A DNA stretch of 64,000 nt from a virus, in the IMG/VR virus record IMGVR_UViG_3300027519_000001. One strand, given 5' to 3'. A program made the translations under genes and the position numbers. Under the pieces are notes generated by a model. The model saw only the letters and a list, made by a program, of their open reading frames with translations. It had not been told where the DNA came from and ran no database searches. This document shows positions 1,033 to 63,811 of this stretch, piece by piece. Position 1 is the first letter of the stretch. Every line of letters starts with the position of its first letter.

Positions 1033-1045
1033 TATTTACAGTTTT
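1033..1045 (-). promoter_or_regulatory. copy 1 of conserved motif AAAACTGTAAATA (minus-strand reading)
   Basis: The + strand reads tatttacagtttt. It lies 48 nt upstream of the ATG at 984, in the divergent intergenic region. Confidence 0.5.
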
Positions 1046-8119: not shown

Positions 8120-8155
8120 CTATAATTTTATAGAAACATTAATGGAAGTTTTATA

Positions 8156-10582: not shown

Positions 10583-10585
10583 CGT

Positions 10586-36996: not shown

Positions 36997-36997
36997 T

Positions 36998-38083
36998 TTA
37001 AACCCAAAACAATTGATTAAATTCTAAGTCTTCTTTCCAACGCTTTAGTGCAGCATTGTCAGGCTTACCCATTTTCAACTTGCTAAGAGACAATGGAACG
37101 TTCTTAACATCAGTTTTAATTCTAGCAAGCTTTCTGCTTACTTCGAAATTAGGACAAGGAACAGGTTCTTTTAAAGTAGGATGATCTACTTTCTTTCCTT
37201 TCTCGTTCACAATCTTTACAGGCTGTGGAACACCAGCAGCAGTAAGCGCTACTTTTCTATCGGGATGACCTGTAATGCGACCGTGCTTCTCAATTATGTT
37301 ATCGAGACTTCCCCAGCGGTCAAGAAGCTTGATAGCAGTAGTTGCACCACAACCTGGGATACCAGCAATGTTGTCAACTTTATCACCATCCATAATTAGA
37401 TAGTCAACGTACTGGTGGGGATGAAGACCGTCTTGCCCGTACATATTATTTTTAGTGTACAGTTTAGCTGGTGAGTTTTGTTGTTCAGGTTGCCATAACC
37501 GAATATGATGCTTAGTCAATAACTGCTTGAAGTCTTTGTCTCGACTATGAATCATTCGAAGACAACCTTTCAATTTCCAAGCAAGTGTACCAAGTATATC
37601 ATCGGCTTCGACAGGTTGATTAATCATGCGGCCGTCTAGTATAGTAAATCCAGCTAGCTTGCACAACGTTTTACAAATTTCAATCTGTTCGTGTAAGTCT
37701 TCATACGTATGTTCACTTACTTTACGATTGCCTTTATAAGATCGTTCTTCTTTCTTTGGAAAGAGAGCCTCTACTAATTCAGGTTCTTCTTTTGCCCACT
37801 TAGTAAAAACATCATATCGAAACGTTTCTTTACGTGGAATGTCAAAACAGATAACAATATACGGTACTTGCTTCTTAGACTGAATAAGAGTATACAGACC
37901 GTTTACCATGTTAATAAACCCTTTCACACCGTTGGTAGGAATACCATCTGACGTATGAAGAACAGGAGTAGCATAGTAAGCTCGATTGACCCAGTTGTTA
38001 CCATCTATTAAATGCACTATTGGAAGTCGTGCTTTGACTTGTGGTTGTTTCTTTGCCTTCTTAGAGGCTCCAAATTCGCGCAT
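36998..38083 (-). CDS. 5'-3' exonuclease / flap endonuclease (Pol I N-terminal domain type)
   Basis: PIVHLIDGNNWVNRAYYA, PVEADDILGTLA and DNIAGIPGCGATTAIKLL (H3TH). It carries an 18 aa basic N-terminal extension. Confidence 0.85.
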   Translation of the reverse strand: MREFGASKKAKKQPQVKARLPIVHLIDGNNWVNRAYYATPVLHTSDGIPTNGVKGFINMVNGLYTLIQSKKQVPYIVICFDIPRKETFRYDVFTKWAKEEPELVEALFPKKEERSYKGNRKVSEHTYEDLHEQIEICKTLCKLAGFTILDGRMINQPVEADDILGTLAWKLKGCLRMIHSRDKDFKQLLTKHHIRLWQPEQQNSPAKLYTKNNMYGQDGLHPHQYVDYLIMDGDKVDNIAGIPGCGATTAIKLLDRWGSLDNIIEKHGRITGHPDRKVALTAAGVPQPVKIVNEKGKKVDHPTLKEPVPCPNFEVSRKLARIKTDVKNVPLSLSKLKMGKPDNAALKRWKEDLEFNQLFWV

Positions 38084-38116: not shown

Positions 38117-38129
38117 TATTTACAGTTTT
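38117..38129 (-). promoter_or_regulatory. copy 2 of motif AAAACTGTAAATA
   Basis: It lies 33 nt upstream of the FEN ATG and overlaps the stop codon (38120-38122) of the upstream gene. Confidence 0.55.
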
Positions 38130-38635: not shown

Positions 38636-38933
38636 AGACAACTTCTTTGTCACTGTCTATTCGTTTGGATTCTATCTTACTAGAAACCCAGTCATATACA
38701 GATTGATAGTTATCGTTAAACAGATTTCCATTTAAGTAAACTATGATGAAGTTTTTAGGGTACTCTAAAGGATACAACTGCTCATACGAGTAAAAGATAG
38801 ATTCTTTGTACTTGTCTGCATCTGCTTTATTTCCAGATACTAAAGCAACCGTAATAATACCCTGCTTGTCATTGGTTCTAATATTGTGAACACTAAGACA
38901 TTGTTGAGTGAAGAGGCGTACTAGACCTTCCAC
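38619..38933 (-). CDS. hypothetical protein (104 aa)
   Basis: ORF in the operon. Confidence 0.55.
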   Translation of the reverse strand: MEGLVRLFTQQCLSVHNIRTNDKQGIITVALVSGNKADADKYKESIFYSYEQLYPLEYPKNFIIVYLNGNLFNDNYQSVYDWVSSKIESKRIDSDKEVVYGYEN

Positions 38934-39361
38934 TCGTCTTCCTCGTCCTCGTCTTCTTCATCGTCTTCATCGGCAGGAACGCCGTCTTCATCTTCATCAG
39001 TAAAGACAATTGCTTCGATTTCGCTAGAGTTAGAATACTGATCATCTAGCTCTTTAACAGCATCCGCCGAAAGCTCTACTGTAATAACAAGAACTGAACC
39101 GATACGCAGAGTCTGAGTTATCATCATGAAGCCGTCATCAGATTCGGCTAGCTCTGCAACTAGAAGAGACAAGTAAGAATAAACGTCACCGAGAAGTTCA
39201 GACTTATCATAATCGTCTTCAAGTAATTCTTGAACTCGTTCTTCGCCGAGCCAATCTTCAAATGATGAAAATACAAAATCTAAACCGTAGTCGTTAGTAA
39301 GTACGACGATTGAAGGTTGTTCTGGGTTGTAGTCGTATGATGAAAATAATTCGTCAGACAT
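38921..39361 (-). CDS. acidic hypothetical protein (146 aa)
   Basis: ORF with a D/E-rich C-terminus (DEDEDGVPADEDDEEDEDEEDEW). Confidence 0.6.
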   Translation of the reverse strand: MSDELFSSYDYNPEQPSIVVLTNDYGLDFVFSSFEDWLGEERVQELLEDDYDKSELLGDVYSYLSLLVAELAESDDGFMMITQTLRIGSVLVITVELSADAVKELDDQYSNSSEIEAIVFTDEDEDGVPADEDDEEDEDEEDEWKV

Positions 39362-40027: not shown

Positions 40028-40968
40028 TGTCGTAATTCCTCAAATTTCTGAATAGGTGGTCGGTACACACCTTGACGTTCATAACTGTTTCGTGCTTTGA
40101 ATGCTGGAACGCGAGTTCTAATAGTCGTAGGCAACGAGTTATACATTACAGCATATTCGGACAACCCTATCAATGTGACACCGAGCGTAAAGTCTTGCAC
40201 CAAATCAGCTTCCCACTTCTTAACAAGATTGGCAATGTAAGGACTTGATACGTTTAACTTTCTCTGCTCTAAGTGTACTAGTCGCATATAGGACCGTAAG
40301 AACCTCTCTATAAAGAAATCAACTTGCTCATTCTGCATCATTATAACAGTGAACCAGTGTGCAATATTAATAAAGCCTCTACTATAGTACGCATGACTAT
40401 TAGGACTTACAGAATACTGAACATCAATATCCATAGAATCAAGTATCATCTTTTCGAAATCTTTATCGAAAGAGGTTTTAAGGTTCTTCGACCAAATAGA
40501 GTTTACTGCATTACCTCCTACAAAGCTTTTACTATACGGAAAATTAGATATTTCAAATTCGTTTCTGTTTATGTAATCTTTGTAGAGGTATCCACCAAGC
40601 GCTGAGAAACAAGGTGAACTATTTTGTACAGCTAGTATGTAACTGTTGCCTTGTTCTTTTTCCTGACATAGAGTTAGTAGATTAGGAATCAGAATCTTGT
40701 TAAAGCAGATATCAGTTTTTCTATCGAACTCTACTTCTAGGCTGTCACGGGGTTTTTTAAGAATACCTTTATCGTACATTTTACTGCACAACTTATCTGA
40801 GATAGCATGATATGTTACAGCGATACGCCCTAATGGACGGTAGAACAAATCGTTTTTAAGCTCAGTCGCTCTCTGACGCAAGCGAGTACTATGGCGTTTA
40901 AAAAGATAGCCAAAGACTAAACCTAATATCTGTCTAGTCTTTAACGTATCTAACTGTTTCTCGATCAT
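40024..40968 (-). CDS. hypothetical protein (314 aa)
   Basis: Long ORF, ATGA-coupled to the putative portal gene. Confidence 0.65.
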   Translation of the reverse strand: MIEKQLDTLKTRQILGLVFGYLFKRHSTRLRQRATELKNDLFYRPLGRIAVTYHAISDKLCSKMYDKGILKKPRDSLEVEFDRKTDICFNKILIPNLLTLCQEKEQGNSYILAVQNSSPCFSALGGYLYKDYINRNEFEISNFPYSKSFVGGNAVNSIWSKNLKTSFDKDFEKMILDSMDIDVQYSVSPNSHAYYSRGFINIAHWFTVIMMQNEQVDFFIERFLRSYMRLVHLEQRKLNVSSPYIANLVKKWEADLVQDFTLGVTLIGLSEYAVMYNSLPTTIRTRVPAFKARNSYERQGVYRPPIQKFEELRQ

Positions 40969-42839
40969 TTCTTAGCTTTGTTCTTTTTAGCCGTAGACGT
41001 TGCTTGGTATAAATGAGATACAGCCTTAGCATTCGGGTCTAAACTACGCAAAGCTTTGGCGATATTATCGTTTGCTTTTTCGTTAGCCGCTGCCTGTCTG
41101 AATACGTGTTGCTTCTTACGTCCAGACTTGCTTACTGTATAAATCTCACTAGCTTCACCGAAGTCACGTTCGTACAGTTTAGGTTGACGTTTGTATCCAT
41201 CAAGTACACGACTCTTGAATCCATTTGGTCTTGATGCAGACGAGAATGAACCAAAGCCACCGCCACCACCCATACCATCATCAGCACCACCGGGTTTAAG
41301 TTTAGATAGTGCGTCTTGGTAATCGTTAATCTGTTTCTGCAAAGCTAGGTCTTCTTCGCGGTTGTTAATTAGTGAATCCAAGTTGAATCCACCAGCAGCC
41401 GCCATAGCACGTAACGGAACAGGAACACCCATTTCTTGAAGACTGCGTAACATATCCATGTACTGTTGATCTGCTTCTGGTTTAAGTTGCTTAGCCCAGT
41501 GAACAGTAGGTATGAACAATTTACTTCCATCATTCATAGTACGTAGAATGTCTTCGCTGTCTTGTTGCATCAGACCTTCTTTCTGAACAATCTTACCACG
41601 CTTATTGATTGTATACCCTTGCATCATTGCTACTAATGGAAATACTTTAGAGTAAAAGATACGGCGCGTTAAGTTGTCGCGGAAAGCTCTCATGGATTCA
41701 ACGAAGACCGTAAGAGACCCTTCCATATTTGCGTAAGATGCATCACCAGAAAGGAAAGCTTCTGATATACCGAGTGCCCGCATTTTAACGAATGTAGTTT
41801 CGTTCCACAAGTCAGTGACTTTCCAGAAGTCACCACCCTGTCTAAGCTCGTCTACAGCAACACCTAGTCGTGTCGCAACTACAGCACCAATCGGGTCAGC
41901 GTCTGCGTTAGTAAACATGTTTGAGATTATCTCAAAGTCTTCTGGGCCCGGCTCCCACTGATCACCATCACCAATTTGAAGATGCATGATACCACGCTGT
42001 CTACGCCCTGACTCAATCAATGTACCTCGATAAAGATTCTTTTCAATTAACCAAATCGGAAGTACACGCTTGAAGTAACTTGTAGGGTTAGAGTGGGTGA
42101 ATGTTCTACGCGGAACGTACAGCGTACTGATAGGATCTAACTCTAATCTATCAGTCATTAGCTTGTTAAAGAATTCTTCGCCTACACTTTTCTTCAATCG
42201 TTCAATACGAGGGCTTTCCATTTGCAGAGTTTTACGAAGTTCTCTATCCATTTCTAGAATGATGATAGGGTCTTGTCCGTATGCAAATAGCTGGTGGATT
42301 TCCAAACTATCCAATCTGTGACACATCAAGTCAATAAACTTTTTGGATTGCTTATTGTGTAACAAACTGCCGCAGAAACCTCCAGTAACTTTATAGTCAA
42401 TAGAGATTTCAGAGAATATGTTGCGTAAGTTTAGTACTTCAATTGCAGAACGGTAAGCATCAAGGAACTTATCATTTGCACCACCGATAGAGAATTCACT
42501 GAACGGTAAAGTACTAAACATATCTACAGCAGATCCACAAACAGGGTCATGCCAGTACATATCACGATATACATTAAACAGAACTTTGTCATGTAAATCG
42601 TAATCCATGCCTTCCATCAAAGGGTCAGTGTCGATGTTTAATGGCATTTGAGTAACACTAGGAATAGCATCACTGGTACTGGATAAACCTGCTTGCTTAG
42701 CTAGTGCAGCTATGCGTTGGCTATCTTTTTCTTGATACACCTGCGAGTCAGACAACCGCTTAGTGCCTGTAGCACCAGCAGTTATCTTTCTACTTTGCGT
42801 AGGGGCCCCACTTCTGTATCTATTGCTAAAGTTAATCAT
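40965..42839 (-). CDS. probable portal protein (624 aa)
   Basis: The call rests on size and on position three genes downstream of terL. It has a Gly-rich, basic C-terminal tail. No diagnostic motif was recognised. Confidence 0.5.
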   Translation of the reverse strand: MINFSNRYRSGAPTQSRKITAGATGTKRLSDSQVYQEKDSQRIAALAKQAGLSSTSDAIPSVTQMPLNIDTDPLMEGMDYDLHDKVLFNVYRDMYWHDPVCGSAVDMFSTLPFSEFSIGGANDKFLDAYRSAIEVLNLRNIFSEISIDYKVTGGFCGSLLHNKQSKKFIDLMCHRLDSLEIHQLFAYGQDPIIILEMDRELRKTLQMESPRIERLKKSVGEEFFNKLMTDRLELDPISTLYVPRRTFTHSNPTSYFKRVLPIWLIEKNLYRGTLIESGRRQRGIMHLQIGDGDQWEPGPEDFEIISNMFTNADADPIGAVVATRLGVAVDELRQGGDFWKVTDLWNETTFVKMRALGISEAFLSGDASYANMEGSLTVFVESMRAFRDNLTRRIFYSKVFPLVAMMQGYTINKRGKIVQKEGLMQQDSEDILRTMNDGSKLFIPTVHWAKQLKPEADQQYMDMLRSLQEMGVPVPLRAMAAAGGFNLDSLINNREEDLALQKQINDYQDALSKLKPGGADDGMGGGGGFGSFSSASRPNGFKSRVLDGYKRQPKLYERDFGEASEIYTVSKSGRKKQHVFRQAAANEKANDNIAKALRSLDPNAKAVSHLYQATSTAKKNKAKK

Positions 42840-53071: not shown

Positions 53072-54655
53072 TTATTTAACACGGGACTTGTAGGCTTTGA
53101 ATTGCTCTTTTGTCTTAGTAGCAATTCTAGGCGTTGGATCTTCTTGGTCTTGCTTGTATTGTCGAATCTCTGCCTTTAACTCTTTAATCTTTTGAAGCAA
53201 TGCTGGCTTTTCCAACTTAGCTAGTTTACGAACTTGTAGGTCAAGTAAAGCCTTTGCTTTTTCAGCGGAGATTTTAAGTTTAGAAATAAGGAACTTATCA
53301 GGGTCCTTACTATCTAGTGACTTGATGATTAGCTGTCTGTTATCTACGCCAAAGATAAGAAGTTCAGTTCTATCGATTTGCGCTAAGCATTCATCTATCA
53401 AGGCTTGCAGGTAATCAATCTCTAACTGTACGCGATACTTAATCCAGTTATTGAAGAATGATACAAAGCTAGACTTAACAAACATGTTGGAGTCATCTGC
53501 TCTACGAACCGTAAAGCCTAAATCGTATGATTCGCTAGATACTAACTCTTTAAACACTTGCTCTGCTAAATCGAAGAACTTCTCTTCTGAAATTCCACGA
53601 GCAGGCTTTATATAGAAGTACGCACCAAGAGGCCCTGACTTAGGATTCTTTTCGTTTGAATCGTCACCAGCTTTAGATACTGCATCCATTTCTGCAAACT
53701 TAGCAAGCTTTTTCTGTATGACGTTTGAACTTCTAAAGCCTGGAGAGAAGGACTTAATCTCAATTAGTTTGTTCTTCCAGTCTGCATTTACTTCTGGTGC
53801 AAACTTGATACTTCCTTTGCCGTACTTAATAAGATTAGCAACGTCTTCGTCTTCGCTAACCTGAACACCACCGTAAGAATAGTCTATACGTAAATGCTTA
53901 GCACAGTTGTTAGGACCTAGTTTCTTATTAGCTTTGAACGCTTTCAATCCAAGAAGAACAAGTTCGTAAACTCCATCTATGTTAAACGGAGGGCTGTCAG
54001 ACTTAACACCAAAACCAATACCAGAGCTACCAAGAACAAGAAGCATAGGCAGCGTAGCAGGCAAGTACAACGGTACTTTCTCTGAGTTATCAAAGTTATC
54101 TACCATTGGAACAGTTTTGAGATAACCCTTATCCAATAGAAAGATATCACTCATTGCGCTAAGTCGTGCTTCTGTATAACGCATAGCAGCTTGGTTATCA
54201 ACAGGAGTACCCCAGTTACCTTGTCCATCTACCAATTGTGGAGATAGCTTATAGTTAACAAGAGTTGCCATTGCACCATAAGCAGCTTGGTCGCCGTGCG
54301 GGTGGTACTTACCAAGAACGTCACCGATAGTACGAGCAGACTTTTTATACTTAGACTTTGAGTTCAAGCCAAGGTTCTTCATAGCCCATAAAATGTAGCG
54401 GTGAACGGGCTTTAGTCCATCACGAAAATCTGTGATAGACCTTTCTTCTACAACGTAGCTACCATATTGTTTTAACGATGTTGCTGCAAAAGAATCTATA
54501 GATATAGAATCTTCTGAGGTCGCTGCCTTACTAGGTGCTTTTCTGCGAGTACCAGTTTTTGTCTTATCACGTAAAGCAGATAAGCTACTTCTTTTTCTCG
54601 TTCTTTTTCTTGCTGGTGGGCTTTCCGCCTCAGTAGCAGACTTTCTTCTTCTCAT
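53072..54655 (-). CDS. type II DNA topoisomerase, cleavage-religation subunit (T4 gp52 / GyrA N-terminal type, 527 aa)
   Basis: RDGLKPVHRYILWAM and YHPHGDQAAYGAM. AMRYTEARL contains the catalytic Tyr. There is no GyrA beta-pinwheel CTD. About 50 aa of basic N-terminal extension. Confidence 0.9.
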   Translation of the reverse strand: MRRRKSATEAESPPARKRTRKRSSLSALRDKTKTGTRRKAPSKAATSEDSISIDSFAATSLKQYGSYVVEERSITDFRDGLKPVHRYILWAMKNLGLNSKSKYKKSARTIGDVLGKYHPHGDQAAYGAMATLVNYKLSPQLVDGQGNWGTPVDNQAAMRYTEARLSAMSDIFLLDKGYLKTVPMVDNFDNSEKVPLYLPATLPMLLVLGSSGIGFGVKSDSPPFNIDGVYELVLLGLKAFKANKKLGPNNCAKHLRIDYSYGGVQVSEDEDVANLIKYGKGSIKFAPEVNADWKNKLIEIKSFSPGFRSSNVIQKKLAKFAEMDAVSKAGDDSNEKNPKSGPLGAYFYIKPARGISEEKFFDLAEQVFKELVSSESYDLGFTVRRADDSNMFVKSSFVSFFNNWIKYRVQLEIDYLQALIDECLAQIDRTELLIFGVDNRQLIIKSLDSKDPDKFLISKLKISAEKAKALLDLQVRKLAKLEKPALLQKIKELKAEIRQYKQDQEDPTPRIATKTKEQFKAYKSRVK

Positions 54656-54686: not shown

Positions 54687-54699
54687 TATTTACAGTTTT
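54687..54699 (-). promoter_or_regulatory. copy 3 of motif AAAACTGTAAATA
   Basis: It lies 31 nt upstream of the topoisomerase subunit ATG and overlaps the stop (54698-54700) of the upstream ORF. Confidence 0.55.
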
Positions 54700-55706: not shown

Positions 55707-57752
55707 CTAAGCTTCTTCTAAAGCTGGACGAGATTCTTTAAGTCCAAGAAGCTTACGCTTCTCAGCCGCAGACTCGGCAGCGATGTTTCGGAAGTAAGCA
55801 ATTTTTGCAGGGTCATCGTTCCAAGATATCTGACGTACTAATCGTGTATCTGGATCAAATGCGATTGGGTCAAGCATATCAGGGTTAACTTCTCCCCACC
55901 CTTTGATACGCGTTATTGCTTTCTTAGCTTCTTCTGTTTGAGGCATCGAACTATAACATTCATCAAACGTGTCACCAGAATAAAGTTTTCCTTTATACAG
56001 CGCAGAGTAAAGCTTACCCTCTACACAATACAATCGACCTTCTTTAATAAAGTCTGGTAACAAGCGGAAGAAGAAACATAAAAGCAATACGTTAATGTGT
56101 GCGCCGTCTGGATCTGGGTCAGATAGCAAGTAAACGCGTTGGCAACGTAACTTGTCAGAACTAAACTTAGGACTGTCTGCTTGTATGTCTAGAGAACCTG
56201 GGTCAATACCTAACGAGATAATAATGTTTAGCACTGCTTGTGAGTTTAACAGCTTATCCAAAGATGTATTGAGGGCGTTGGCAGGCTTACCAGACATTTT
56301 CAATATCTCTTGATTAGAGTTTCTAGCGTTCTTTGCAGTACCACCAGCAGAGTCCCCTTCAACGATGTATATTTCACGCTGGTCAGGTTTAACGTTTGGT
56401 GCTTCTGTTAAGTTCTCAGGTAAAACACCGCGAGACTTCTTACGAACTTCTGTCATAGACTTCATGACTTTCTTTAGAGATTCGCGGGCGTTGTTTGCAG
56501 TAGTAGCTTTCTTAATGATGTTCTTGGCAATTCTAGGATTGTCTTTAAACCATTCGATTAGAGATTCTTCAAGCTTTGTTTCAACGTCTTTAGCAACTTT
56601 TGATACAAGCTTATCTTTAACCTGTGAACTATATTGGGCAGAGTTCATTTTAAAGTTCAGAACACCGCAAGCACCTATCATTAAATCGTGAACAGTGAAC
56701 TTTGCTTTCTTGTCTCGATCAGTAAGATGCGGCTTGATAGCTTTTTGTAGAGCAGAACGGAAGCCTTCAACGTGAGTACCATGCTCTACTGTAGGTGAAC
56801 TGTTAACGTAAGAAGTAAATAAATGATCGTCTGCTTGGTCAGTCCAAGTAATTGCACAAGACAAGTCTTCATCTTCGTACATGAAAGGTTTACGGGATAC
56901 AGCTTGTGCTTCTGCTTCTTTGATTCTGTTAAGCACTAACCAGTCTAGACCTTTAGTGTTAACAAACTTCTTAGAGCCTTTACCAACACATGTGTAAGTA
57001 ATGTGGAAGCCTGGGTTAAGCATTGCTAAGTCACGTAACCAGCTACCTGCTGTACCAAGTTCAAGCTTCGCTACAGTCAACTTGTCTTCTGCTACTTTAC
57101 GTGAGCCTCGAGCAGCGTCTTCGGACACAACGGTTTGGTCAGGTATGAATCTAACAATAGTTCCATACTTGCTAATGGTTTTTTCTGCTAAGTCGAAGTT
57201 CTTAAATGCGGCTGGTGCGCGTGTACCGAGCTTTTTAACTTTAGCATCAGCAACGCCTTTCTTAAACGTTTGCGTGTACCAGACTTTTTCACGCTTAGTC
57301 CAAACTTCCATAACACTAGATGCGGCATTGACGGCTGCAATACCAACACCGTGAGTACCACTAGATGTTTTATACGCAGTATCATCGAACTTACCACCAG
57401 CATGAACTTTGGTAAGAATCAAAGTCATGGCACTGACTTTGCCTTCGTGTTCGGTCTGCTTTAATCCAACTGGAATACCTTGAGCGTAGTCAGCAATAAT
57501 GTAAGAGTTATCTTCTGGATTAACAATAATCTCAGCACCTGTGTTACGACCTGCTGCAAATTCATCGTACACGTTATCTACAGCTTCCTTTACCATTCGG
57601 AATACCATAGGATTACCAAGCGCACCTAAGTACATAGATGGATTGGCACGAATACCATTAAGACCTTCTTGAAACTTAATGCTATCTTCGTCATACGATT
57701 GAGACTTGGCAGGGGTCTTCGCGGGGCTGGTTCGTCTTTTTCTAATTGCCAT
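55707..57752 (-). CDS. type II DNA topoisomerase, ATPase/TOPRIM subunit (GyrB-like; T4 gp39+gp60 equivalent in one ORF, 681 aa)
   Basis: SYDEDSIKFQEGLNGIRANPSMYLG, EAVDNVYDE, GGKFD..YKTSSGTHGVG, EIYIVEGDSAGGTAK (TOPRIM) and PDPDGAHI. Confidence 0.9.
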   Translation of the reverse strand: MAIRKRRTSPAKTPAKSQSYDEDSIKFQEGLNGIRANPSMYLGALGNPMVFRMVKEAVDNVYDEFAAGRNTGAEIIVNPEDNSYIIADYAQGIPVGLKQTEHEGKVSAMTLILTKVHAGGKFDDTAYKTSSGTHGVGIAAVNAASSVMEVWTKREKVWYTQTFKKGVADAKVKKLGTRAPAAFKNFDLAEKTISKYGTIVRFIPDQTVVSEDAARGSRKVAEDKLTVAKLELGTAGSWLRDLAMLNPGFHITYTCVGKGSKKFVNTKGLDWLVLNRIKEAEAQAVSRKPFMYEDEDLSCAITWTDQADDHLFTSYVNSSPTVEHGTHVEGFRSALQKAIKPHLTDRDKKAKFTVHDLMIGACGVLNFKMNSAQYSSQVKDKLVSKVAKDVETKLEESLIEWFKDNPRIAKNIIKKATTANNARESLKKVMKSMTEVRKKSRGVLPENLTEAPNVKPDQREIYIVEGDSAGGTAKNARNSNQEILKMSGKPANALNTSLDKLLNSQAVLNIIISLGIDPGSLDIQADSPKFSSDKLRCQRVYLLSDPDPDGAHINVLLLCFFFRLLPDFIKEGRLYCVEGKLYSALYKGKLYSGDTFDECYSSMPQTEEAKKAITRIKGWGEVNPDMLDPIAFDPDTRLVRQISWNDDPAKIAYFRNIAAESAAEKRKLLGLKESRPALEEA

Positions 57753-58720: not shown

Positions 58721-58734
58721 GCTAGAAAACTAGC
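58721..58734 (-). terminator. weak hairpin after the H1-like gene
   Basis: GCTAG-tttt-CTAGC on the minus strand, followed by TTAGATTTATATT. The stem is short, so support is low. Confidence 0.3.
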
Positions 58735-58741
58735 GATAGAC

Positions 58742-59323
58742 TTAGCTTTCGAAATCGAACTCGTCGCCAGCAGCAGCTTTTGAACGGCGACCACGGGCTG
58801 GTGCTTTTGCTTTTGCAGGAGCTTTCGCTTTACCACGAGCAGGTGCTTTTGCTTTTGCTGGTGCTTTACCACGAGCAGGTGCTTTTGCTTTTGTAGCAGT
58901 CTTAGTTGCAGCAGCTTTACCGCGTGGAGTTTTAGCAGTAGTCTTAGTTGCAGCAGCTTTACCACGAGCAGGAGCTTTTGTAGCAGCTTTAGCTTTGCCA
59001 CGAGCAGGAGCTTTAGCAGTAGTCTTAGTTGCAGCAGCTTTACCACGAGCAGGAGCTTTTGCAGGAGCAGCAGCAGGAGCATCTTCCGAAGTCATCTTTT
59101 CAACAAGTACATCGATTAGACCTTGAACGCGGTCGATACCTTTATCGATTTTATTTTGCTGAGTAGTGATTGATTTAGCAAGGCGAGGATTTTCAACTTT
59201 TTCAGCTAGCGCTGCAAGTTGTGCAGAGATAGAAGCAAAGCCTTCCATCGATTTTTGAATTTGACCTACTTTAGTTCCAGCAGCTTTAAAGTCAGTCGCT
59301 TTAAGTGATACCATTTTCGCCAT
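58742..59323 (-). CDS. histone H1-like / AlgP-like lysine-alanine-rich DNA-binding protein (193 aa)
   Basis: An N-terminal helical 80 aa is followed by about 11 copies of (A/T)KAPARGKA. The C-terminal tip is acidic-aromatic (GDEFDFES). GGAG RBS. Confidence 0.7.
   Translation of the reverse strand: MAKMVSLKATDFKAAGTKVGQIQKSMEGFASISAQLAALAEKVENPRLAKSITTQQNKIDKGIDRVQGLIDVLVEKMTSEDAPAAAPAKAPARGKAAATKTTAKAPARGKAKAATKAPARGKAAATKTTAKTPRGKAAATKTATKAKAPARGKAPAKAKAPARGKAKAPAKAKAPARGRRSKAAAGDEFDFES
58769..59077 (-). repeat. imperfect tandem repeats encoding KAPARGKA(A/K)ATK units
   Basis: Repeated gctttaccacgagcagg(a/t)gcttt(t/a)gc blocks are visible on the + strand. Confidence 0.85.
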
Positions 59324-59350
59324 TTTTTATTCTCCATTATTGTAAGAGTG

Positions 59351-59369
59351 AGGGGGCGGGCAGCCCCCT
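59351..59369 (-). promoter_or_regulatory. GC-rich hairpin in the leader of the H1-like gene
   Basis: AGGGGGC-(5 nt)-GCCCCCT is a 7 bp perfect stem. No U-run follows on the minus strand. Confidence 0.55.
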
Positions 59370-59420
59370 GTAATTAAAAGTAAAAGTTAGTTATTTAGAT
59401 TTAGAGATTAAACGGCGATA

Positions 59421-60359
59421 TTAATTATCGTCTTCCCAATCGTCTTCGTCATCTTCAAGCTCGTCTTCGTCTTCATCGATTTCGCCTTCGAAGTGTTCTT
59501 CAAGCGCATCGTATGCATCGTCGTAAGAGACCTTGCGACCTTTAACCAATTCAAGTTTCTTGGCTAGAGCGATAACTTCTTTTTCGCTCATTTCTTCAAG
59601 ATCCGGCGCTTCGTCCTCTTCTTCTTCAAGCTCGTCGTCTTCTTCTTCAAGCTCTTCGTCTTCGCCTTCAGCAAAGTGTTCATCAAGAAGGTCAAAAGCC
59701 TTATCAGCAGTCATGCGACCTTTGCCAAGTTTTAATTTCTTAGCAAGAGCAATTAGCTCTTTGTCGTCCATGCTTTCAAGATCTGGAACTTCGTCCTCGT
59801 CTTCTTCAAGCTCTTCGTCTTCGTCTTCAATTTCACCAAGGTGTTCATCGGCTAGCTCTTGAAGTTTTTCATCAGAAGCTTTGTTTAACTTAGCTTTGGT
59901 GATACCGCGAATACGTAAACCTGCAAGCTCTTCGATAATCGCTTCACGATCAAATTCGTCGTCAAGCTCTTCGTCTTCGTCTTCTTCAAGCTCTTCGTCT
60001 TCTTCTTCCAAGTGCTTGTCGGCAAGCTCTTGAAGTTTTTCATCAGAAGCTTTGTTTAGCTTAGCTTTGGTAATGCCGCGAATCTTTAAGGCAGCTAAAG
60101 CTTCAATGATTTCGTCGCGGTCAAAGTCTTCTTCAAGCTCTTCGTCTTCGTCTTCTTCAAGCTCTTCATCTTCATCCGCTTCAACAGCTTCACCAGAGAC
60201 TGAAAGACCAGCGGCTTCAAGAATTTCAATAGATTCCGCGTCACCGTCGTTAGCCGCTTCTGAAAGACCAACTACTAAAGACTTTAATAGCTCGATTGCT
60301 TCGTTAGTCTTCTTAGCAGTGCGCTTTGCAGGGGCTTTTGATTTTGCATTTCTTGGCAT
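59421..60359 (-). CDS. hyper-acidic protein with four HeH/SAP/Rho_N-like motifs (312 aa)
   Basis: Basic N-terminal tag MPRNAKSKAPAKRTAKK. Then two 57 aa repeats and two 60 aa repeats, each holding a short helix-extended-helix-like motif flanked by poly-D/E. Confidence 0.7.
   Translation of the reverse strand: MPRNAKSKAPAKRTAKKTNEAIELLKSLVVGLSEAANDGDAESIEILEAAGLSVSGEAVEADEDEELEEDEDEELEEDFDRDEIIEALAALKIRGITKAKLNKASDEKLQELADKHLEEEDEELEEDEDEELDDEFDREAIIEELAGLRIRGITKAKLNKASDEKLQELADEHLGEIEDEDEELEEDEDEVPDLESMDDKELIALAKKLKLGKGRMTADKAFDLLDEHFAEGEDEELEEEDDELEEEEDEAPDLEEMSEKEVIALAKKLELVKGRKVSYDDAYDALEEHFEGEIDEDEDELEDDEDDWEDDN
59424..59789 (-). repeat. tandem duplication, 2 x about 180 nt (unit PDLExMxxKExIALAKKLxLxKGR...)
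   Basis: Protein-level repeat at aa 191-251 and 252-312. Confidence 0.8.
59790..60125 (-). repeat. tandem duplication, 2 x 171 nt (57 aa unit FDR(D/E)xIIExLAxL(K/R)IRGITKAKLNKASDEKLQELAD)
   Basis: ctcttgaagtttttcatcagaagctttgttta recurs at 59856 and 60027. Confidence 0.9.
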
Positions 60360-60419
60360 TTCTTTTTCCTTAAAGGATGTTTTGATTTTGAATGTTGGAT
60401 TGTAATTGCTTACGAGTAC

Positions 60420-60432
60420 TATTTACAGTTTT
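60420..60432 (-). promoter_or_regulatory. copy 4 of motif AAAACTGTAAATA
   Basis: It lies 60 nt upstream of the ATG at 60359, in an 87 nt intergenic spacer. Confidence 0.55.
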
Positions 60433-60446
60433 TGCTTTTGTAGCTT

Positions 60447-60983
60447 TTATGCAGCAGCTTCGTCAAATTCAATTTGAACGTCTAGCTTAGGATTAGCCTG
60501 GTCGATTTCGATAACGTCACCAGTTTTTAAATCAGTAACGATAGCGATAGAGCCTGCCATTTCAACAGTACACTTAGGTAGCGCTAACACTTCACCTTCT
60601 TTAATAACACCTAGCATAGTGTGCGAACCTTCTTCACCAATCATATACGCAATGTCTTCACGCTTGATTGTTTTGATAACTACTTTAGAAGAGCCGTGGC
60701 GCTTGTTGGTACGAATAACAACTTTGTCGTTATCAGCAGATAGACAGAAACCAACCATTTGACTAACTTGGTCTTTAGCGCGAACAACAACCGAAGCACC
60801 TACAGATGAAAGTTGCTTAGCACTAAGTTTACCAGTACCCATGTTGTTGATACGACTTTCGTGCTTTTGCAAACGAGAGTTACGAACAAGACCAGCTTTA
60901 GCTACAGCAGTACCAGTCTTACGACCGCGGGCAGGGGCTTTAGCTTTACTAGCAGGGGCTTTAGTTTTAGTATTACGTTTCAT
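60447..60983 (-). CDS. hypothetical protein with basic KAPA/RGR N-terminal tag (178 aa)
   Basis: MKRNTKTKAPASKAKAPARGRKTG, then a beta-rich body. GGAG RBS. Confidence 0.65.
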   Translation of the reverse strand: MKRNTKTKAPASKAKAPARGRKTGTAVAKAGLVRNSRLQKHESRINNMGTGKLSAKQLSSVGASVVVRAKDQVSQMVGFCLSADNDKVVIRTNKRHGSSKVVIKTIKREDIAYMIGEEGSHTMLGVIKEGEVLALPKCTVEMAGSIAIVTDLKTGDVIEIDQANPKLDVQIEFDEAAA

Positions 60984-60995
60984 TTCTTTACTCCG

Positions 60996-61024
60996 AGAAA
61001 AAGGAAGAAGCTTAAAGCTTCTTC
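60996..61024 (-). terminator. hairpin plus U-run (attenuator/terminator) between two genes
   Basis: GAAGAAGCTT-a-AAGCTTCTTC is a 10 bp inverted repeat that encloses the TAA stop at 61012-61014. It is followed on the minus strand by CTTTTTCTC, then the GGAG RBS of the next gene. Confidence 0.55.
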
Positions 61025-62445
61025 ACCAAAAAGATTGGGTTATTGATTACAGCGCTTTCGATGCAGAAGCGGGTGCTTACCAACATCAACTCAGGCGTTG
61101 CATCTTGTGAAATTGATAGAGGAAGAGAATAGTTTTCTTCTTCGTCTTCATCTACATTAGTAAGTTCAGAATCAGATTCATCATTTTCTTCGTCTAAATC
61201 ATCAGATTCTTCATCAGCGTCTTCGTCTTCGTCTTCATCCGACGGGTCAAAGGCTTCTTCTGAGTCTTCGTAGAAGTCTTCGTCTTCGTCTTCGCCGTCC
61301 CAGAATTGCTCGTCTTCAACTAACATCTTGTCTTCTGTATACTTCAAGATATCGCCAAGAGTCACAGTTTCGAAGTCCTGCTCCGTAGTAAGTGCGCGTA
61401 CCATTTCAGTAGCGGCATTGTCTAGGATGGCCTCTTCTGCATCGACAACGTAAACGAATTCAACATCTACATTTAAGTCGGCGTTCATGATTTGCTGTTC
61501 GAAGTATTGAACAAGCTTTGCAGCACGTTCCGCTTTATTCGCTGCACCATTCAATGTAGGTATAGGAAGTAGTTGCGATACTACGATTGTATCAGGGTCG
61601 TCTTGGTGTAGACCGGCAGAAGTAAATGCGTTAAAGCCAAGTTGCTCTGGCATATCTTCTACATCAAGTGGGAAAGGGTTTTCGCTAAGTGCCGAAACAA
61701 AGCGGCGCATTACGAACTGACCCATAGAATCCATCAAGTTAGATTCAGATACAAGATTGAATTCAAGATTGTTGAACTCAGAAGCTTTAGATAAAAGCTC
61801 CATAACTGAATCGTACATCAAACCGCTAGGCTTACCTTCTTTTGGAACAGCGATAGTAAGATTTCGATTGTAAGTAGTACCGTCTTCGGCTTCGTGTACT
61901 TCACGATAATCAATACCTGTATCGATGTTACCAGCAGGAACAATAAACTGCACTACGATACGCGGCGAGTAAGTGTCCATCATATCAACAAACAAGTCTT
62001 TGTTGATTTGCAGTGTGTTGCTAAGGCCCTGACCAAGCTTAATTGCTTCACCAATGTCTACGCCCATACCCATAACAGCGTCTTCGGTACTAAGTTCAAC
62101 ATCAACGTCTGCATTCGCAGTCTCTGTAGTAACAGGGTCTGGAATGTTACTACGTTCTTTTTGTTCAGCGATTGCTTCATCGCGGGCTTCGGGAGATAGC
62201 TTAGCACCCATCGCTACGGCACGCTGACGATCATTTGAATTCGTCACTTCGTTTTCCTTATTATCAGGTTGAGTTATTTCACTAGAACTTTCGTTCTGCT
62301 CAGTATTTACAGTTTCCACATTTGCTTGTGTAACTTGTTCCGCGTCGGCGCTCTTTTCAGAAGGCTTCCAATTTGTTGAATCATGTTCTACTACATTAGT
62401 ATTTGCAGAAACGTTTTCTTTATTTTGATCGTGATCATTAGACAT
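61012..62445 (-). CDS. acidic hypothetical protein (477 aa)
   Basis: Long ORF. The N- and C-terminal thirds are polar or strongly acidic (DEDEDADEESDDLDEENDESD). Confidence 0.65.
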   Translation of the reverse strand: MSNDHDQNKENVSANTNVVEHDSTNWKPSEKSADAEQVTQANVETVNTEQNESSSEITQPDNKENEVTNSNDRQRAVAMGAKLSPEARDEAIAEQKERSNIPDPVTTETANADVDVELSTEDAVMGMGVDIGEAIKLGQGLSNTLQINKDLFVDMMDTYSPRIVVQFIVPAGNIDTGIDYREVHEAEDGTTYNRNLTIAVPKEGKPSGLMYDSVMELLSKASEFNNLEFNLVSESNLMDSMGQFVMRRFVSALSENPFPLDVEDMPEQLGFNAFTSAGLHQDDPDTIVVSQLLPIPTLNGAANKAERAAKLVQYFEQQIMNADLNVDVEFVYVVDAEEAILDNAATEMVRALTTEQDFETVTLGDILKYTEDKMLVEDEQFWDGEDEDEDFYEDSEEAFDPSDEDEDEDADEESDDLDEENDESDSELTNVDEDEEENYSLPLSISQDATPELMLVSTRFCIESAVINNPIFLVKKL

Positions 62446-62461
62446 TGTATAATCCTCTTTA

Positions 62462-63811
62462 TTACTTAACTTTAATCCAGTTTACAGTTTTTGTACTTGA
62501 TACATCTGCTAACCGGTACATCACGCCGCTATTCGTATACCCGGGTGGAGTATTATTACTCAACTTTAGCGCAGTACGCTCAGGTGTAGACAACGGCTTT
62601 ATTGTTGTAATTGTTTCAAACATAGTACTAAGAAATTTTAGTACTGACTCATGCGGATTGGAAACCCGCTTTAGCTCTTCGTTCCAGTAGCTATACATAT
62701 CGTATGCAACAAATGATAAGCTAGGGACAATATCGTATTCGCGAAGTTTACGTTTCTCTTCCTTTGCTTCATTAACCACCTGCTCATGCTCTTCGTACTT
62801 CTCTACTAGATTGGTAGCTTTACTCAGCATAATAGTAGTGTTTCGGCTTAACCGCTTTTTAGAACTATTATCTACTATGAAGCGTATAGCTTTCTTGTAC
62901 TTCGATCTGTAGTTCTTAACAAAAGCGCTACTAGGATGAGAGCTAGGTAAATCAAAACCATCCATATCAGCAAGTGAAAATACATCTTGATCCAAAGAAC
63001 AACGTATAAGCTGTTTGACCGTAGATTCTTTTCCCCAATACTTTCTAAGCTTGGATAGGTTACGTGCCTTAATGCTCACTATTCCGCTAACAAATAAATA
63101 CGGACCGAATGAACTTAGAACGTTAGAGTCTATTTCCTTTCGAGCAAACTGCATAGCTTGAACAGTAAAGTTCATGAACTTATTATTCACTTTACAGTAT
63201 GCTGCAAATAGGTTTGCTTTGTTTGATGATTTATCTATGCGATAAACCAACGTACACTCTAAACCGTCCAGACTTGGAGCCGCAGAGAAAGGAGGATTCT
63301 TTTGAATAAATCGCTCCGTACTCATTGTACTAAAAGTACTAGCTAACAAATCTTTATAATGCGCTGTTTGTGTATTAAAGTAAAACCAATTCGGGTCTAC
63401 ACTGGCAGAGTTCACCTGCTTCCAATGTTCGCGAAGTATGCGCAACATATTAGAGTAAGAAAAAACTCTTCCATTCACTTTTGGGCTAAACCCTGCTGCT
63501 AAGTGTGTCCATAACAAATGACACTCTTTTGAATGCGGCAGACCTAACCCAACTCGATACAAGCTTGCAATCTTTGTACACACCGTAGGCGAGTACTCAC
63601 TGCTTGCTTGCTTAATTAGACTTTTCAACGTGTGTTTGGATATTCGCAACTCAAACACCTGAGTATGCTTATAAGCTTCACCAGGCACATGAATTTTTAC
63701 AGTTAAAGCAGACCCGTCTAACTTTGGGTCTGCTGGAAAGATTAACTTCTCATGTACAAGTGCGCGAATTCCATCTGGGTCTACTTCGTCAAATATTCGT
63801 ATATATGACAT
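62462..63811 (-). CDS. hypothetical protein with ligase-like nucleotidyltransferase motifs (449 aa)
   Basis: DPKLDGSAL (KxDG), a second AAPSLDGLE, FVAYDMY, SGVMYR, and a C-terminal NWIKVK. This is motif-level similarity only. Confidence 0.6.
   Translation of the reverse strand: MSYIRIFDEVDPDGIRALVHEKLIFPADPKLDGSALTVKIHVPGEAYKHTQVFELRISKHTLKSLIKQASSEYSPTVCTKIASLYRVGLGLPHSKECHLLWTHLAAGFSPKVNGRVFSYSNMLRILREHWKQVNSASVDPNWFYFNTQTAHYKDLLASTFSTMSTERFIQKNPPFSAAPSLDGLECTLVYRIDKSSNKANLFAAYCKVNNKFMNFTVQAMQFARKEIDSNVLSSFGPYLFVSGIVSIKARNLSKLRKYWGKESTVKQLIRCSLDQDVFSLADMDGFDLPSSHPSSAFVKNYRSKYKKAIRFIVDNSSKKRLSRNTTIMLSKATNLVEKYEEHEQVVNEAKEEKRKLREYDIVPSLSFVAYDMYSYWNEELKRVSNPHESVLKFLSTMFETITTIKPLSTPERTALKLSNNTPPGYTNSGVMYRLADVSSTKTVNWIKVK
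62479..62491 (-). promoter_or_regulatory. copy 5 (variant AAAACTGTAAACT) of the motif
   Basis: It lies 33 nt upstream of the ATG at 62445, inside the 3' end of the upstream ORF. Confidence 0.45.

Follow-up and report, generated by a model that had tools for sequence, protein, structure and literature searches.

The window, by which we mean the whole 64-kb stretch of viral DNA analyzed here, belongs to the "Lupandier" group of jumbo phages, with phage NCTB as its closest relative, and carries a block of four adjacent minus-strand ORFs that encode oppositely charged proteins (Table 1). We tentatively interpret this block as the core, with predicted high expression, of a conserved Lupandier-group module, which supplies largely disordered, putatively DNA-associated proteins together with polyanionic partners. 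On this interpretation, a group of giant phages maintains, beside its DNA-handling enzymes, a set of largely low-complexity proteins of opposite charge that are probably very abundant, and this set would most likely coat or organize DNA during infection.

Charge and codon usage of the block

All four ORFs of the initial annotation were recovered at the same coordinates. In order of transcription, their products have a net charge of -84 (477 aa, pI 4.05), +11 (178 aa, pI 9.81), -89 (312 aa, pI 4.05) and +29 (193 aa, pI 10.77). The proposed alternation of extremely acidic and extremely basic proteins holds for the sign of these charges but is overstated for the 178-aa protein, which is moderately basic overall and has its positive residues concentrated in the first ~45. 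At 1:1 stoichiometry, the summed charges are far from balance (-173 vs +40).

On the codon-bias axis (PC1: CGT/GGT/GCT/ACT vs AGA/ATA/GGG), the block accounts for four of the five genes with the strongest bias among the 59 of the window, with values of -2.65, -3.93, -2.99 and -3.78 in the above order; the 178-aa gene has the strongest bias in the window. The calculated chance that some run of four adjacent genes provides four of the top five is ~6e-4. The fifth is the ortholog (46% identity) of gp257 of Pseudomonas phage PaBG, a Coomassie-visible virion protein. Judging from codon bias, the block proteins are probably highly expressed; the suggestion of individually tuned, high expression stands, in the sense of individually regulated genes with extreme codon bias.

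Conservation and genomic neighborhood

The gene order of the block and the synteny of the module are kept in NCTB, Erwinia phages SNUABM_7 and Y3, Dickeya phage JA13, Yersinia phage fHe-Yen9-02 and the distant relative PaBG; a soil metagenome contig is syntenic as well. Hence, a survey of relatives of the kind suggested with the initial annotation finds the block throughout the group, PaBG included. Order and charge pattern persist down to ~20-30% identity, and the hosts of the carriers differ widely (marine NCTB-like, Pseudomonas, Erwinia, Dickeya and Yersinia phages). Most relatives have topoisomerase II genes as neighbors of the block, and PaBG has those for a sigma factor, SSB and RecA. 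The two small genes between the block and GyrB have positional orthologs in NCTB (080/081) and PaBG (gp123/gp122), and the GyrB itself is 73% identical to that of NCTB. On the other side lies the 449-aa gene, with orthologs at the same position in NCTB (075), PaBG (gp128, E 9e-7) and Erwinia (gp329). It has no Pfam, PHROG or NCBIfam match, its AF2 model is poor (pLDDT 41), and its codon bias is weak (PC1 = +1.16), so the protein is probably low in abundance.

Terminase and portal genes lie 13-20 kb off in the same gene cluster and on the same strand. Capsid or prohead-protease genes adjoin the block in none of the relatives examined. Searches of Pfam and NCBIfam returned no match for any of the four block genes, and no significant similarity to known DNA-binding domains or histone-like families was found for their products. 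A search of the accessible literature gave no description of the module, and the initial annotation likewise knew of no phage module of such organization.

Table 1. Features of the block and its surroundings in the window.
Feature	Position	Strand	Remarks
Further hyperacidic gene	38921-39361
GyrB-like topoisomerase II large subunit	55707..57752	-	Pfam and PHROG matches
Two small conserved genes, 189 aa and 134 aa	57762..58689	-	between block and GyrB
Terminator-like hairpin	58721..58734	-	just 3' of 193-aa gene
193-aa basic protein, net +29	58742..59323	-	ORF, six KAPARG copies
Acidic-aromatic tip DEFDFES	58745-58765	-	193-aa gene
Six KAPARG copies in K/A/P/R/G/T repeats	58766-59077	-	193-aa gene
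GC-rich hairpin, 7-bp stem	59351..59369	-	AGGGGGC-TGCCC-GCCCCCT, between 312-aa and 193-aa genes
312-aa hyperacidic protein, net -89	59421..60359	-	ORF, starts MPRNAKSKAPAKRTAKK
Exact AAAACTGTAAATA	60420..60432	-	upstream of 312-aa gene
178-aa protein	60447..60983	-	ORF, starts MKRNTKTKAPASKAKAPARGRK
Terminator-like hairpin, 9-bp stem	61004..61024	-	loop is TAA stop of 477-aa gene, then CTTTTTCT
477-aa acidic protein, net -84	61012..62445	-	central region conserved
One-mismatch motif copy	62304-62316		inside 477-aa ORF
449-aa basic protein, pI 9.5	62462..63811	-	conserved upstream neighbor of block
Degenerate motif copy AAAACTGTAAACT	62479..62491	-	two mismatches, 34 nt upstream of 477-aa gene

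Promoter motif and intergenic structures

The 13-mer AAAACTGTAAATA occurs in four exact copies in the 64 kb, all of them intergenic and on the minus strand, against ~0.002 expected by chance (arithmetic from the length of the 13-mer). Three window genes with the motif ahead of them encode the GyrA-like topoisomerase, an exonuclease and the 312-aa protein; the 30-kb tail-gene block contains no copy at <=1 mismatch. The claim that two block genes have the motif upstream is half right, because just one exact copy precedes a block gene; the copy ahead of the 477-aa gene has two mismatches, although its spacing to the ATG equals that of the exact copies. Variants of the motif precede the orthologous genes in NCTB and PaBG, and in PaBG the motif is also found ahead of DNA polymerase I. 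From the RefSeq record of a single relative, Lu11, where this sequence is annotated as 'putative middle/late promoter', we infer its promoter class and timing.

Both hairpins reported initially were located. The one enclosing the stop codon at 61012 is followed by a U-run, and the equivalent junction of NCTB combines a terminator hairpin with the promoter motif. The GC hairpin ahead of the 193-aa gene has no U-run; the 97-nt intergenic stretch that bears it folds with -17.8 kcal/mol (z = -2.5), and the equivalent position is occupied by a hairpin of other sequence in NCTB and by a GC-rich structure in PaBG. A strong terminator follows the PaBG ortholog of the 193-aa gene. The succession of promoter, acidic gene, hairpin, basic (H1-like) gene and terminator is thereby kept in the window, NCTB and PaBG; by this arrangement, the hyperacidic 312-aa gene and the H1-like 193-aa gene form one unit retained in three phages.

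The acidic proteins, the H1-like protein and their tails

The 312-aa protein starts with a short basic stretch and a small helical N-domain; four two-helix repeats of ~40 aa follow, with poly-D/E linkers between them. Its gene contains an internal repeat of 171 nt. Every relative has an ortholog, and that of PaBG, gp125, retains just the N-domain and a polyacidic tail. A resemblance to Rho_N/HeH was not significant. The 193-aa protein, with the KAPARG repeats noted before, has a helical N-domain (~residues 1-80), the repeat region and an acidic-aromatic tip. According to the family alignment, this three-part architecture and the tip [DE][DE]F[DE]F occur in all relatives, while the repeats of the Erwinia and Pseudomonas members are K/A/E/D-rich (KAEKA-type) and less H1-like than those of the window. 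No match to Pfam Hc1 (PF07432) or any NCBIfam model was obtained. For the 477-aa protein, the description "acidic ends" is roughly right: the N-terminus is mildly acidic and residues ~370-440 are hyperacidic, but the last ~27 residues are hydrophobic. Its ortholog NCTB 076 is 30% identical (E 6e-34); Erwinia and PaBG have acidic proteins of 1003 aa and 356 aa, respectively, in this position, to which BLAST detected no similarity. Pfam, PHROG and NCBIfam gave no family match for the 477-aa protein.

The N-terminal tag noticed initially (MxRNxKxKAPA) is real and common to the 178-aa and 312-aa N-termini also at the DNA level, where the window contains three copies of the 11-mer AAAGCCCCTGC, exclusively within these two regions, against 0.01 expected. 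It is not a conserved signal, however, being absent in NCTB. Comparison of the sequences indicates that the conserved trait is a lysine-rich tail, N- or C-terminal, and not an exact N-terminal motif. K-rich N-terminal tails are also found on the GyrB, GyrA, RecA, RuvC-like resolvase and exonuclease of the group, and on none of 49 PaBG tail-region genes. The window GyrB has a ~17-aa K/R-rich N-terminal extension, MAIRKRRTSPAKTPAKSQ, and its homologs in NCTB, Erwinia, PaBG and Lu11 carry such tails as well.

The family of the 178-aa protein

In the AF2 model of the 178-aa protein (pLDDT 76.9; core >85), a disordered, K/R/A/P-rich tail (residues 1-31) leads into two short helices, after which come an all-beta core of tandem small beta-barrels and an acidic end (...EFDEAAA). 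Foldseek found no significant match in PDB, the weak best matches being tandem SH3b, Tudor and EF-P folds (TM <=0.31), and in BFVD only family members, among them PaBG gp126. The protein matches PHROG 22271, a function-unknown family. Among 1.84e9 representatives, the family comprises 87 clusters; a basic N-flank is present in 68, a basic C-segment in 45, an acidic tip in 44 and a long fused polyacidic tail in 15. These last 15 are natural fusions that unite basic tail, core domain and polyacidic tail on one polypeptide. N-terminal H1-like PARxSKK repeats occur in some clusters, and the members from enterobacterial and Pseudomonas phages carry their basic tail at the C-terminus.

These fusions bear on the view that four independent, fast-evolving low-complexity genes are merely adjacent and their charge alternation is incidental. 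In favor of this view, the four genes are all orphans, alignment of the large acidic protein fails between subgroups, and the window contains another hyperacidic gene. We nevertheless consider such a coincidence very improbable: gene order and charge pattern persist at low sequence identity, the intergenic architecture is conserved, all four genes are jointly extreme in codon bias, and both charges are joined in one chain in the fused clusters. Synteny, codon bias, kept gene arrangement and natural fusions support the proposed charge-complementary set as functionally linked.

Virion proteome and alternative functions

None of PaBG gp124-128, which include the block orthologs, is among the 14 Coomassie bands of the PaBG virion, a proteome that minor or proteolysed components and scaffolds leaving the capsid could escape. 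Bands of 19-23 kDa were identified in it. Furthermore, the PaBG capsid cluster owns a hyperacidic gp82 (net -103), an acidic gp79 and a basic gp83 (net +36), the latter a virion band. The initial annotation had named both a DNA-condensing or coacervate-forming system and capsid-internal or scaffold proteins. A DNA-associated role is the better fit of the two, because the promoter motif is common to replication genes and missing from the tail-gene block, because the orthologs are missing from the virion bands, and because a separate acidic/basic pair adjoins the PaBG capsid gene. The best-fitting interpretation, though far from assured, is that the block encodes abundant DNA-coating proteins and polyacidic partners and not capsid parts. 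The neighboring DNA-handling genes and the K-rich tails on enzymes of DNA metabolism also speak for it. Against it stand the lack of significant similarity to known DNA-binding or histone-like families, the charge imbalance at 1:1 stoichiometry, the less H1-like repeats of the Erwinia and Pseudomonas members, and the terminase and portal genes in the same gene cluster.

In a prohead core as in T4, the giant capsid would assemble on a core made of the acidic proteins (cf. gp22, gp67, gp68), and the basic ones (cf. IPI-III) would be packaged and injected along with the DNA. The T4 core is the best-known abundant acidic and basic set of small phage proteins, the predicted expression of the block matches the level of a major virion protein, and terminase and portal genes share its strand; scaffolds would not show on virion gels, because they are degraded or expelled. 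Such a role is still unlikely, given the distance from capsid and protease genes and the evidence from PaBG. In addition, the basic tail is N-terminal in some members and C-terminal in others, which is at odds with a cleavable N-terminal capsid-targeting sequence; unlike the T4 proteins, the block has no fixed targeting peptide.

Alternatively, the polyacidic proteins could imitate DNA (cf. Ocr, Arn, Gp46) and so tie up nucleoid proteins or restriction enzymes of the host, while the basic ones shut the host chromosome down, as chlamydial Hc1 does on overexpression. There is ample documentation of phage DNA mimics and of HU or H-NS inhibitors (PMC8892312), and H1-like proteins of other jumbo phages have been discussed in terms of host takeover and anti-defense (PMC12619734). 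The negative charge density of the block is extreme, and it is very high also in mimics such as T7 Ocr, T4 Arn and ArdA. However, the known mimics fold compactly, with charges placed like the phosphates of DNA and not in poly-D/E tracts, whereas the charge here lies in D/E tracts of low complexity that separate small helical repeats. Anti-defense genes are usually variable and host-specific, but the module is a conserved core feature across phages of very different hosts, under the promoter motif of replication genes. We regard this explanation as improbable.

Putative mechanism and related systems

Returning to the DNA-coating interpretation, we infer DNA binding, polyanion-polycation interaction, timing and purpose of the block proteins as follows. 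The polycationic tails of the 178-aa and 193-aa proteins would bind DNA non-specifically, the helical domain of the latter serving oligomerization beside its histone-H1-like K/A/P/RG repeat tail and acidic-aromatic tip. Both proteins may coat or compact intracellular DNA while the neighboring topoisomerase II and replication enzymes work on it. The 312-aa and 477-aa proteins, both hyperacidic, would bind the polycations by electrostatic attraction and, like histone chaperones or as counter-ions mimicking DNA, maintain the solubility of the basic proteins; they could also set the amount of basic protein free for DNA binding, or strip it off the DNA, e.g. before packaging. By analogy with SSB, T4 gp32 and HMGB1, the acidic tips of the basic proteins might serve as intramolecular competitors or as docking peptides.

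Linker histone H1 and its polyacidic chaperones (prothymosin-alpha, nucleoplasmin, NAP1/SET) likewise combine a polycation that is disordered and rich in K/A/P with a polyanion of the poly-D/E type; the two partners are abundant and tied to DNA metabolism, and the acidic and basic genes of the block are putatively co-transcribed. In contrast to H1 and its chaperones, the block lacks a winged-helix globular domain and a nucleoplasmin or NAP fold, and its proteins are phage-encoded sequence orphans with putative mutual binding and DNA association. The 178-aa family recalls SSB, T4 gp32, T7 gp2.5 and HMGB1 in its basic tail, beta-barrel core and acidic C-terminus, which is an often aromatic tip or a long acidic tail; unlike for these proteins, Foldseek gave no OB-fold or SSB match for the 178-aa model, and PaBG has a separate annotated SSB. 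Bacterial H1-like proteins (Chlamydia Hc1/Hc2, Pseudomonas AlgP and PhaF, the mycobacterial HupB tail) share the K/A/P-rich repeats, here KAPARG. They differ from the 193-aa protein in its missing PF07432 and NCBIfam matches, its conserved acidic-aromatic tip and the KAEKA-type repeats of its orthologs in other hosts. PhaF tethers a structure to DNA by means of a helical N-domain and an H1-like tail, an architecture that resembles that of the 193-aa protein.

Genome context and conservation of the block

The four minus-strand genes agree exactly with the reading frames described in the initial annotation. Together with the upstream gene of a 449-aa protein, they open a minus-strand cluster that continues with two small genes, the GyrB and GyrA-like topoisomerase II genes, a further topoisomerase-like gene and the DnaB helicase gene, followed by those of the large terminase, the portal protein and an exonuclease; the plus-strand half of the window is taken up by tail genes. 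When the region was compared by megablast with 50,697 GenBank phage records, no relative emerged at the DNA level. The GyrB-like protein directly downstream of the block region shares 73% identity with that of NCTB, the closest relative among the 'Lupandier' jumbo phages, and ~44% with those of the Erwinia, Dickeya and Pseudomonas Lu11 jumbo phages.

The synteny survey proposed in the initial annotation reveals that block order and charge pattern are kept in NCTB (BN7874_075-081), Erwinia phages pEa_SNUABM_7 and Y3, Dickeya phage JA13, Yersinia phage fHe-Yen9-02, a soil metagenome contig and the distant Pseudomonas phage PaBG (gp128-gp122). In PaBG, the block lies upstream of sigma-factor, SSB and RecA genes instead of topoisomerase II. 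Orthologs in the relatives are annotated as hypothetical, except for BN7874_079 of NCTB. This ortholog of the 193-aa protein is labelled 'Large-conductance mechanosensitive channel', almost certainly a low-complexity artefact. With the 178-aa protein, tblastn recovered no homolog from PaBG or Lu11; the PaBG homolog was identified via Foldseek and gene size, and the Lu11 copy (probably I1TQG4) is absent from the 20 kb around the Lu11 topoisomerase genes. The 477-aa protein has a clear ortholog in NCTB only; in its position, Erwinia phage (1003 aa) and PaBG (356 aa) possess equally acidic but unalignable proteins. Our literature searches found no description of this module. The H1-like proteins noted in other jumbo phages belong to a different family, PF07432 (PMC12619734).

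Coordinates of the block and of related features in the window and in other phage records
Feature	Record	Position	Strand	Remark
449-aa gene	window	62462-63811	minus	upstream neighbor of the block
477-aa gene	window	61012-62445	minus	block
178-aa gene	window	60447-60983	minus	block
312-aa gene	window	59421-60359	minus	block
193-aa gene	window	58742-59323	minus	block, H1-like
11-mer AAAGCCCCTGC	window	60328-60338, 60931-60941, 60952-60962	minus	178-aa and 312-aa tags
13-mer AAAACTGTAAATA	window	1033-1045, 38117-38129, 54687-54699, 60420-60432	minus	exact copies
GAAACTGTAAATA	window	62304-62316	minus	one-mismatch copy of AAAACTGTAAATA
Hairpin with T-run	window	61004-61024		encloses TAA of 477-aa gene
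GC hairpin	window	59351-59369		ahead of 193-aa gene
GyrB gene	window	55707-57752		K/R-rich extension
GyrA-like gene	window	53072-54655		K/R-rich extension
Exonuclease gene	window	36998-38083		K/R-rich extension
146-aa gene	window	38921-39361	minus	between portal and exonuclease genes
Portal gene	window	40965-42839	minus	basic C-terminal tail
569-aa gene	window	26186-27895	plus	codon rank 2
K/R-rich extension	NCTB (L001)	13423-
K/R-rich extensions	Lu11 (L003)	1935-2561, 8902-, 10998-
K/R-rich extension	L009	10454-12619
K/R-rich extension	PaBG (L010)	36390-37895
BN7874_079	NCTB (L001)	8330-8914		193-aa ortholog
'Putative middle/late promoter'	Lu11 (L003)	~7375		identical to AAAACTGTAAATA
gp79-gp83	PaBG (L010)	5477-10961		flanks of capsid gene gp80

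Charge and architecture of the four proteins

The 477-aa and 312-aa proteins have net charges of −84 and −89, respectively, and by sequence this charge is located in low-complexity D/E runs. In folded DNA mimics such as Ocr, ArdA and Arn, a compact fold displays carboxylates in a B-DNA-like pattern; to DNA mimicry and host shut-off as an explanation of the block we give a small probability. The 178-aa protein has a net charge of +11, of which +10 lies within the first 30 residues, and the 193-aa protein one of +29 (pI 10.8). The latter consists of a helical-looking N-terminal stretch of ~80 residues, ~100 residues of K/A/P/R/G/T repeats (residues 83-186) including six copies of KAPARG, and the C-terminal end DEFDFES. 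With its long Lys/Ala/Pro-rich repeats and high positive charge, it belongs by composition to the H1-like or bacterial K-A-P repeat class of putative DNA binders. The helical N-domain, the Lys-rich repeats and a tip of the form [DE][DE]F[DE]F recur in the alignment of its family.

In the 312-aa protein, a basic N-terminus of 17 residues and a small N-domain precede four units of ~40 residues with poly-D/E linkers between them, and the middle two units are a tandem duplication of 171 nt. Its family shares the start MAKxKK, followed by the small N-domain and by polyacidic tracts; in PaBG, gp125 consists of the N-domain and about 100 acidic residues, nothing more. A reading of the ~40-aa repeats as HeH/Rho_N/SAP domains was dropped, because no test reached significance: Rho_N gave E values of 0.035-0.058, under the gathering score and in one of 14 units, and the best match of a 14-unit repeat profile to PDB sequences had an E value of 0.077.

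The 178-aa family is characterized by a conserved core of ~120 residues plus a basic tail, which lies at the N-terminus in the window and in NCTB and at the C-terminus in the Erwinia, Dickeya, Yersinia and PaBG orthologs. The C-terminal basic tails of these enterobacterial and Pseudomonas phages are followed by an acidic tip, e.g. SDEDF or DEDDDDLDD. We considered that the acidic-aromatic tips might bind the clamp but dropped this idea, as they are unlike QLxLF motifs.

The shared N-terminus MxRNxKxKAPA, which the initial annotation had described as a tag, is real and reaches the DNA level, but the exact motif is not kept even in NCTB. The 11-mer AAAGCCCCTGC, coding for K-A-P-A, occurs three times in the 64 kb, exclusively in the N-termini of the 178-aa and 312-aa proteins. 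Because it uses GCC, while both genes otherwise prefer GCT, a recent duplication of the tag or gene conversion is suggested.

Family and fold searches

A HMMER search of 1.84 billion representatives assigned 87 clusters to the 178-aa family. A basic N-flank is found in 68 of the 87, a basic C-segment in 45, a terminal acidic tip in 44 and a long polyacidic C-terminal tail in 15; some clusters possess long N-terminal repeats of the PARxSKK type. This survey of tags and tails indicates that the conserved feature is a position-independent polycationic tail, often with an acidic end, and not an N-terminal signal peptide. In the metagenomic relatives P0075, P0093, P0098, P0102, P0134 and P0140, a single chain unites PARxSKK repeats of the H1-like kind with the beta core and a polyacidic tail; these tails contain up to 124 D/E residues, the number found in the C-terminal flank of P0140. 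Judged from sequence, such fusions are the module's entire charge-block logic inside a single protein, and as evidence of the Rosetta-stone type they point to polycation, core and polyanion working together. Four neighboring genes without any joint function are, in our estimate, the least probable of the explanations considered.

When the four proteins and their neighbors were scanned with Pfam, PHROGs and NCBIfam, the sole match was a PHROG of no assigned function, for the 178-aa protein. The Hc1 family PF07432 did not match the 193-aa protein in the Pfam scan (E<=0.1), which returned only a spurious match to NYD-SP28, and NCBIfam gave nothing for this protein or three orthologs. Against PDB sequences, profiles of the 178-aa protein, the 193-aa protein and the repeat unit yielded nothing significant, and the acidic-family profile yielded compositional matches only (nucleolar protein, Ies2, ASF1 tail). 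Profile searches tie none of the four block proteins to any known family. Rfam predicted no known RNA within 55-64 kb of the window.

The AlphaFold2 model of the 178-aa protein (49 sequences, pLDDT 76.9) is confident over the core; disordered residues 1-31 are followed by two short helices and an all-beta core. Foldseek found no match in the PDB at E≤1e-3; the best weak matches are tandem SH3b, Agenet/Tudor and EF-P folds (TM ≤0.31), with no SSB among the top PDB matches that would indicate an OB-fold. In BFVD, only family members were retrieved, PaBG S5VZK8 among them. The model of the 449-aa neighbor is unusable (pLDDT 41).

Expression signals

All four exact copies of the 13-mer AAAACTGTAAATA precede an ATG by 32-61 nt; the downstream genes encode a 209-aa protein, the exonuclease, the GyrA-like protein and the 312-aa protein. 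The motif is identical to features annotated as 'putative middle/late promoter' in Lu11, and its sequence and upstream position mark it as a candidate promoter of this type. Not a single copy within one mismatch is present in the 30-kb tail-gene block. In PaBG, the motif is located upstream of the DNA polymerase I gene, and variants precede the 178-aa and 312-aa orthologs in NCTB and the 312-aa ortholog in PaBG. The copy GAAACTGTAAATA inside the 477-aa ORF, 130 nt downstream of the start, could be a chance coding match (VETVNT) or an internal promoter.

The two hairpins reported in the initial annotation are real; the GC hairpin ahead of the 193-aa gene has no T-run. Window, NCTB and PaBG share a layout of promoter, acidic gene, stable hairpin without U-run, H1-like gene and terminator, so that polyanion and polycation are probably co-transcribed. 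A scan for sigma-70 and terminator consensus sequences revealed no excess over shuffles.

On the first principal-component axis of codon usage (CGT, GGT, CTT, GCT and ACT versus AGA, ATA, GGG and GGA), the block genes rank 1, 3, 4 and 5 of 59. An axis of this kind is usually tied to expression level. By our own calculation, four neighboring genes somewhere in the window would reach such ranks by chance with a probability of about 6e-4; the 449-aa neighbor is without codon bias. Rank 2 is held by the 569-aa gene, whose PaBG ortholog gp257 (46% identity) is an abundant, Coomassie-visible tail component of the virion. Upstream of this gene, CATAAATAAT resembles a T4-type late promoter. For group members besides PaBG and Erwinia Y3, we found no proteomics or transcriptomics in the literature; the Dickeya paper contains no proteomics.

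Capsid proteins or DNA-associated proteins

The initial annotation left the choice between a DNA-condensing system and internal or scaffold proteins of the capsid. T4-type prohead core and internal proteins are present in the virion or encoded next to capsid and protease genes; the PaBG block orthologs gp124-128 are separated by ~37 kb from the capsid gene gp80 and are not among the 14 bands of the virion, in a shallow proteome whose smallest identified band is 18.9 kDa. The flanks of gp80 contain a separate acidic/basic set, i.e. gp79 (acidic, net −31), gp82 (643 aa, hyperacidic, net −103, annotated as ribosomal-like) and gp83 (320 aa, basic, net +36, a virion band), which are likely candidates for the genuine scaffold and internal proteins of PaBG. 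In the window, we found no homolog of the capsid protein or protease of PaBG, or of its gp82 and gp83. Moreover, T4-type capsid targeting employs a fixed N-terminal sequence that the prohead protease removes, whereas in the 178-aa family the end that bears the basic tail differs between phages, which argues against an N-terminal signal. Taken together with the promoter motif shared with replication genes, these observations make a T4-like prohead core or scaffold set less likely. Since scaffolds leave the capsid and the PaBG proteome is shallow, we retain this explanation as an unlikely one; the DNA-associated set is better supported.

Putative role in DNA organization

On the evidence of composition, the block is a set of putative phage histone-like proteins with acidic partners. 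Our preferred reading, which is tentative, is that it supplies abundant, mostly disordered DNA-coating proteins together with polyacidic partners. Binding and compaction of DNA would fall to the basic proteins, the acidic ones would chaperone, buffer or displace them, and the acidic tips would act as built-in competitors or docking peptides. If the block organizes DNA, it would represent a phage analog of linker histone plus acidic chaperone. We know of no means by which jumbo phages outside the nucleus-forming Chimalliviridae organize about 250 kb of replicating DNA, and a polycation/polyanion set that is conserved, probably very abundant and shares a promoter motif with replication genes is a testable candidate. 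Even a conservative reading provides a name and a hypothesis for five to seven 'hypothetical' core genes, which are present in every sequenced group member examined.

K/R-rich N-terminal extensions of 15-45 aa occur on DNA enzymes across the group: on GyrB and GyrA in the window, NCTB, PaBG, Lu11 and the metagenome contig, on RecA in PaBG (gp116), on the RuvC-like resolvase in Lu11 (gp136), and on the exonuclease in the window. The hyperacidic 312-aa family begins with the same kind of tail; among 49 PaBG genes from the tail region, none has such an extension. These tails may be a general device for DNA affinity or localization in the group, and their wide occurrence suggests a general principle of electrostatic recruitment. 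A more far-reaching model, to which we assign a small probability, applies to jumbo phages without a chimallin nucleus: the block would furnish the polyanion/polycation scaffold of a DNA compartment that has no membrane and is held together by electrostatic forces, as a complex coacervate or 'phage chromatin'. The terminal K-rich tails would then be a charge-based address, concentrating topoisomerase II subunits, RecA, resolvase, exonuclease and even the hyperacidic protein in the compartment.

Two further charged proteins of the window were noticed. The 146-aa protein is hyperacidic (net -41), has no family match and ends in EEDEDEEDEWKV, a C-terminal D/E-W motif similar to DDWEDDN, in which the 312-aa protein terminates. 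The portal protein carries the basic C-terminal tail ATSTAKKNKAKK, with +6 over the last 20 residues.
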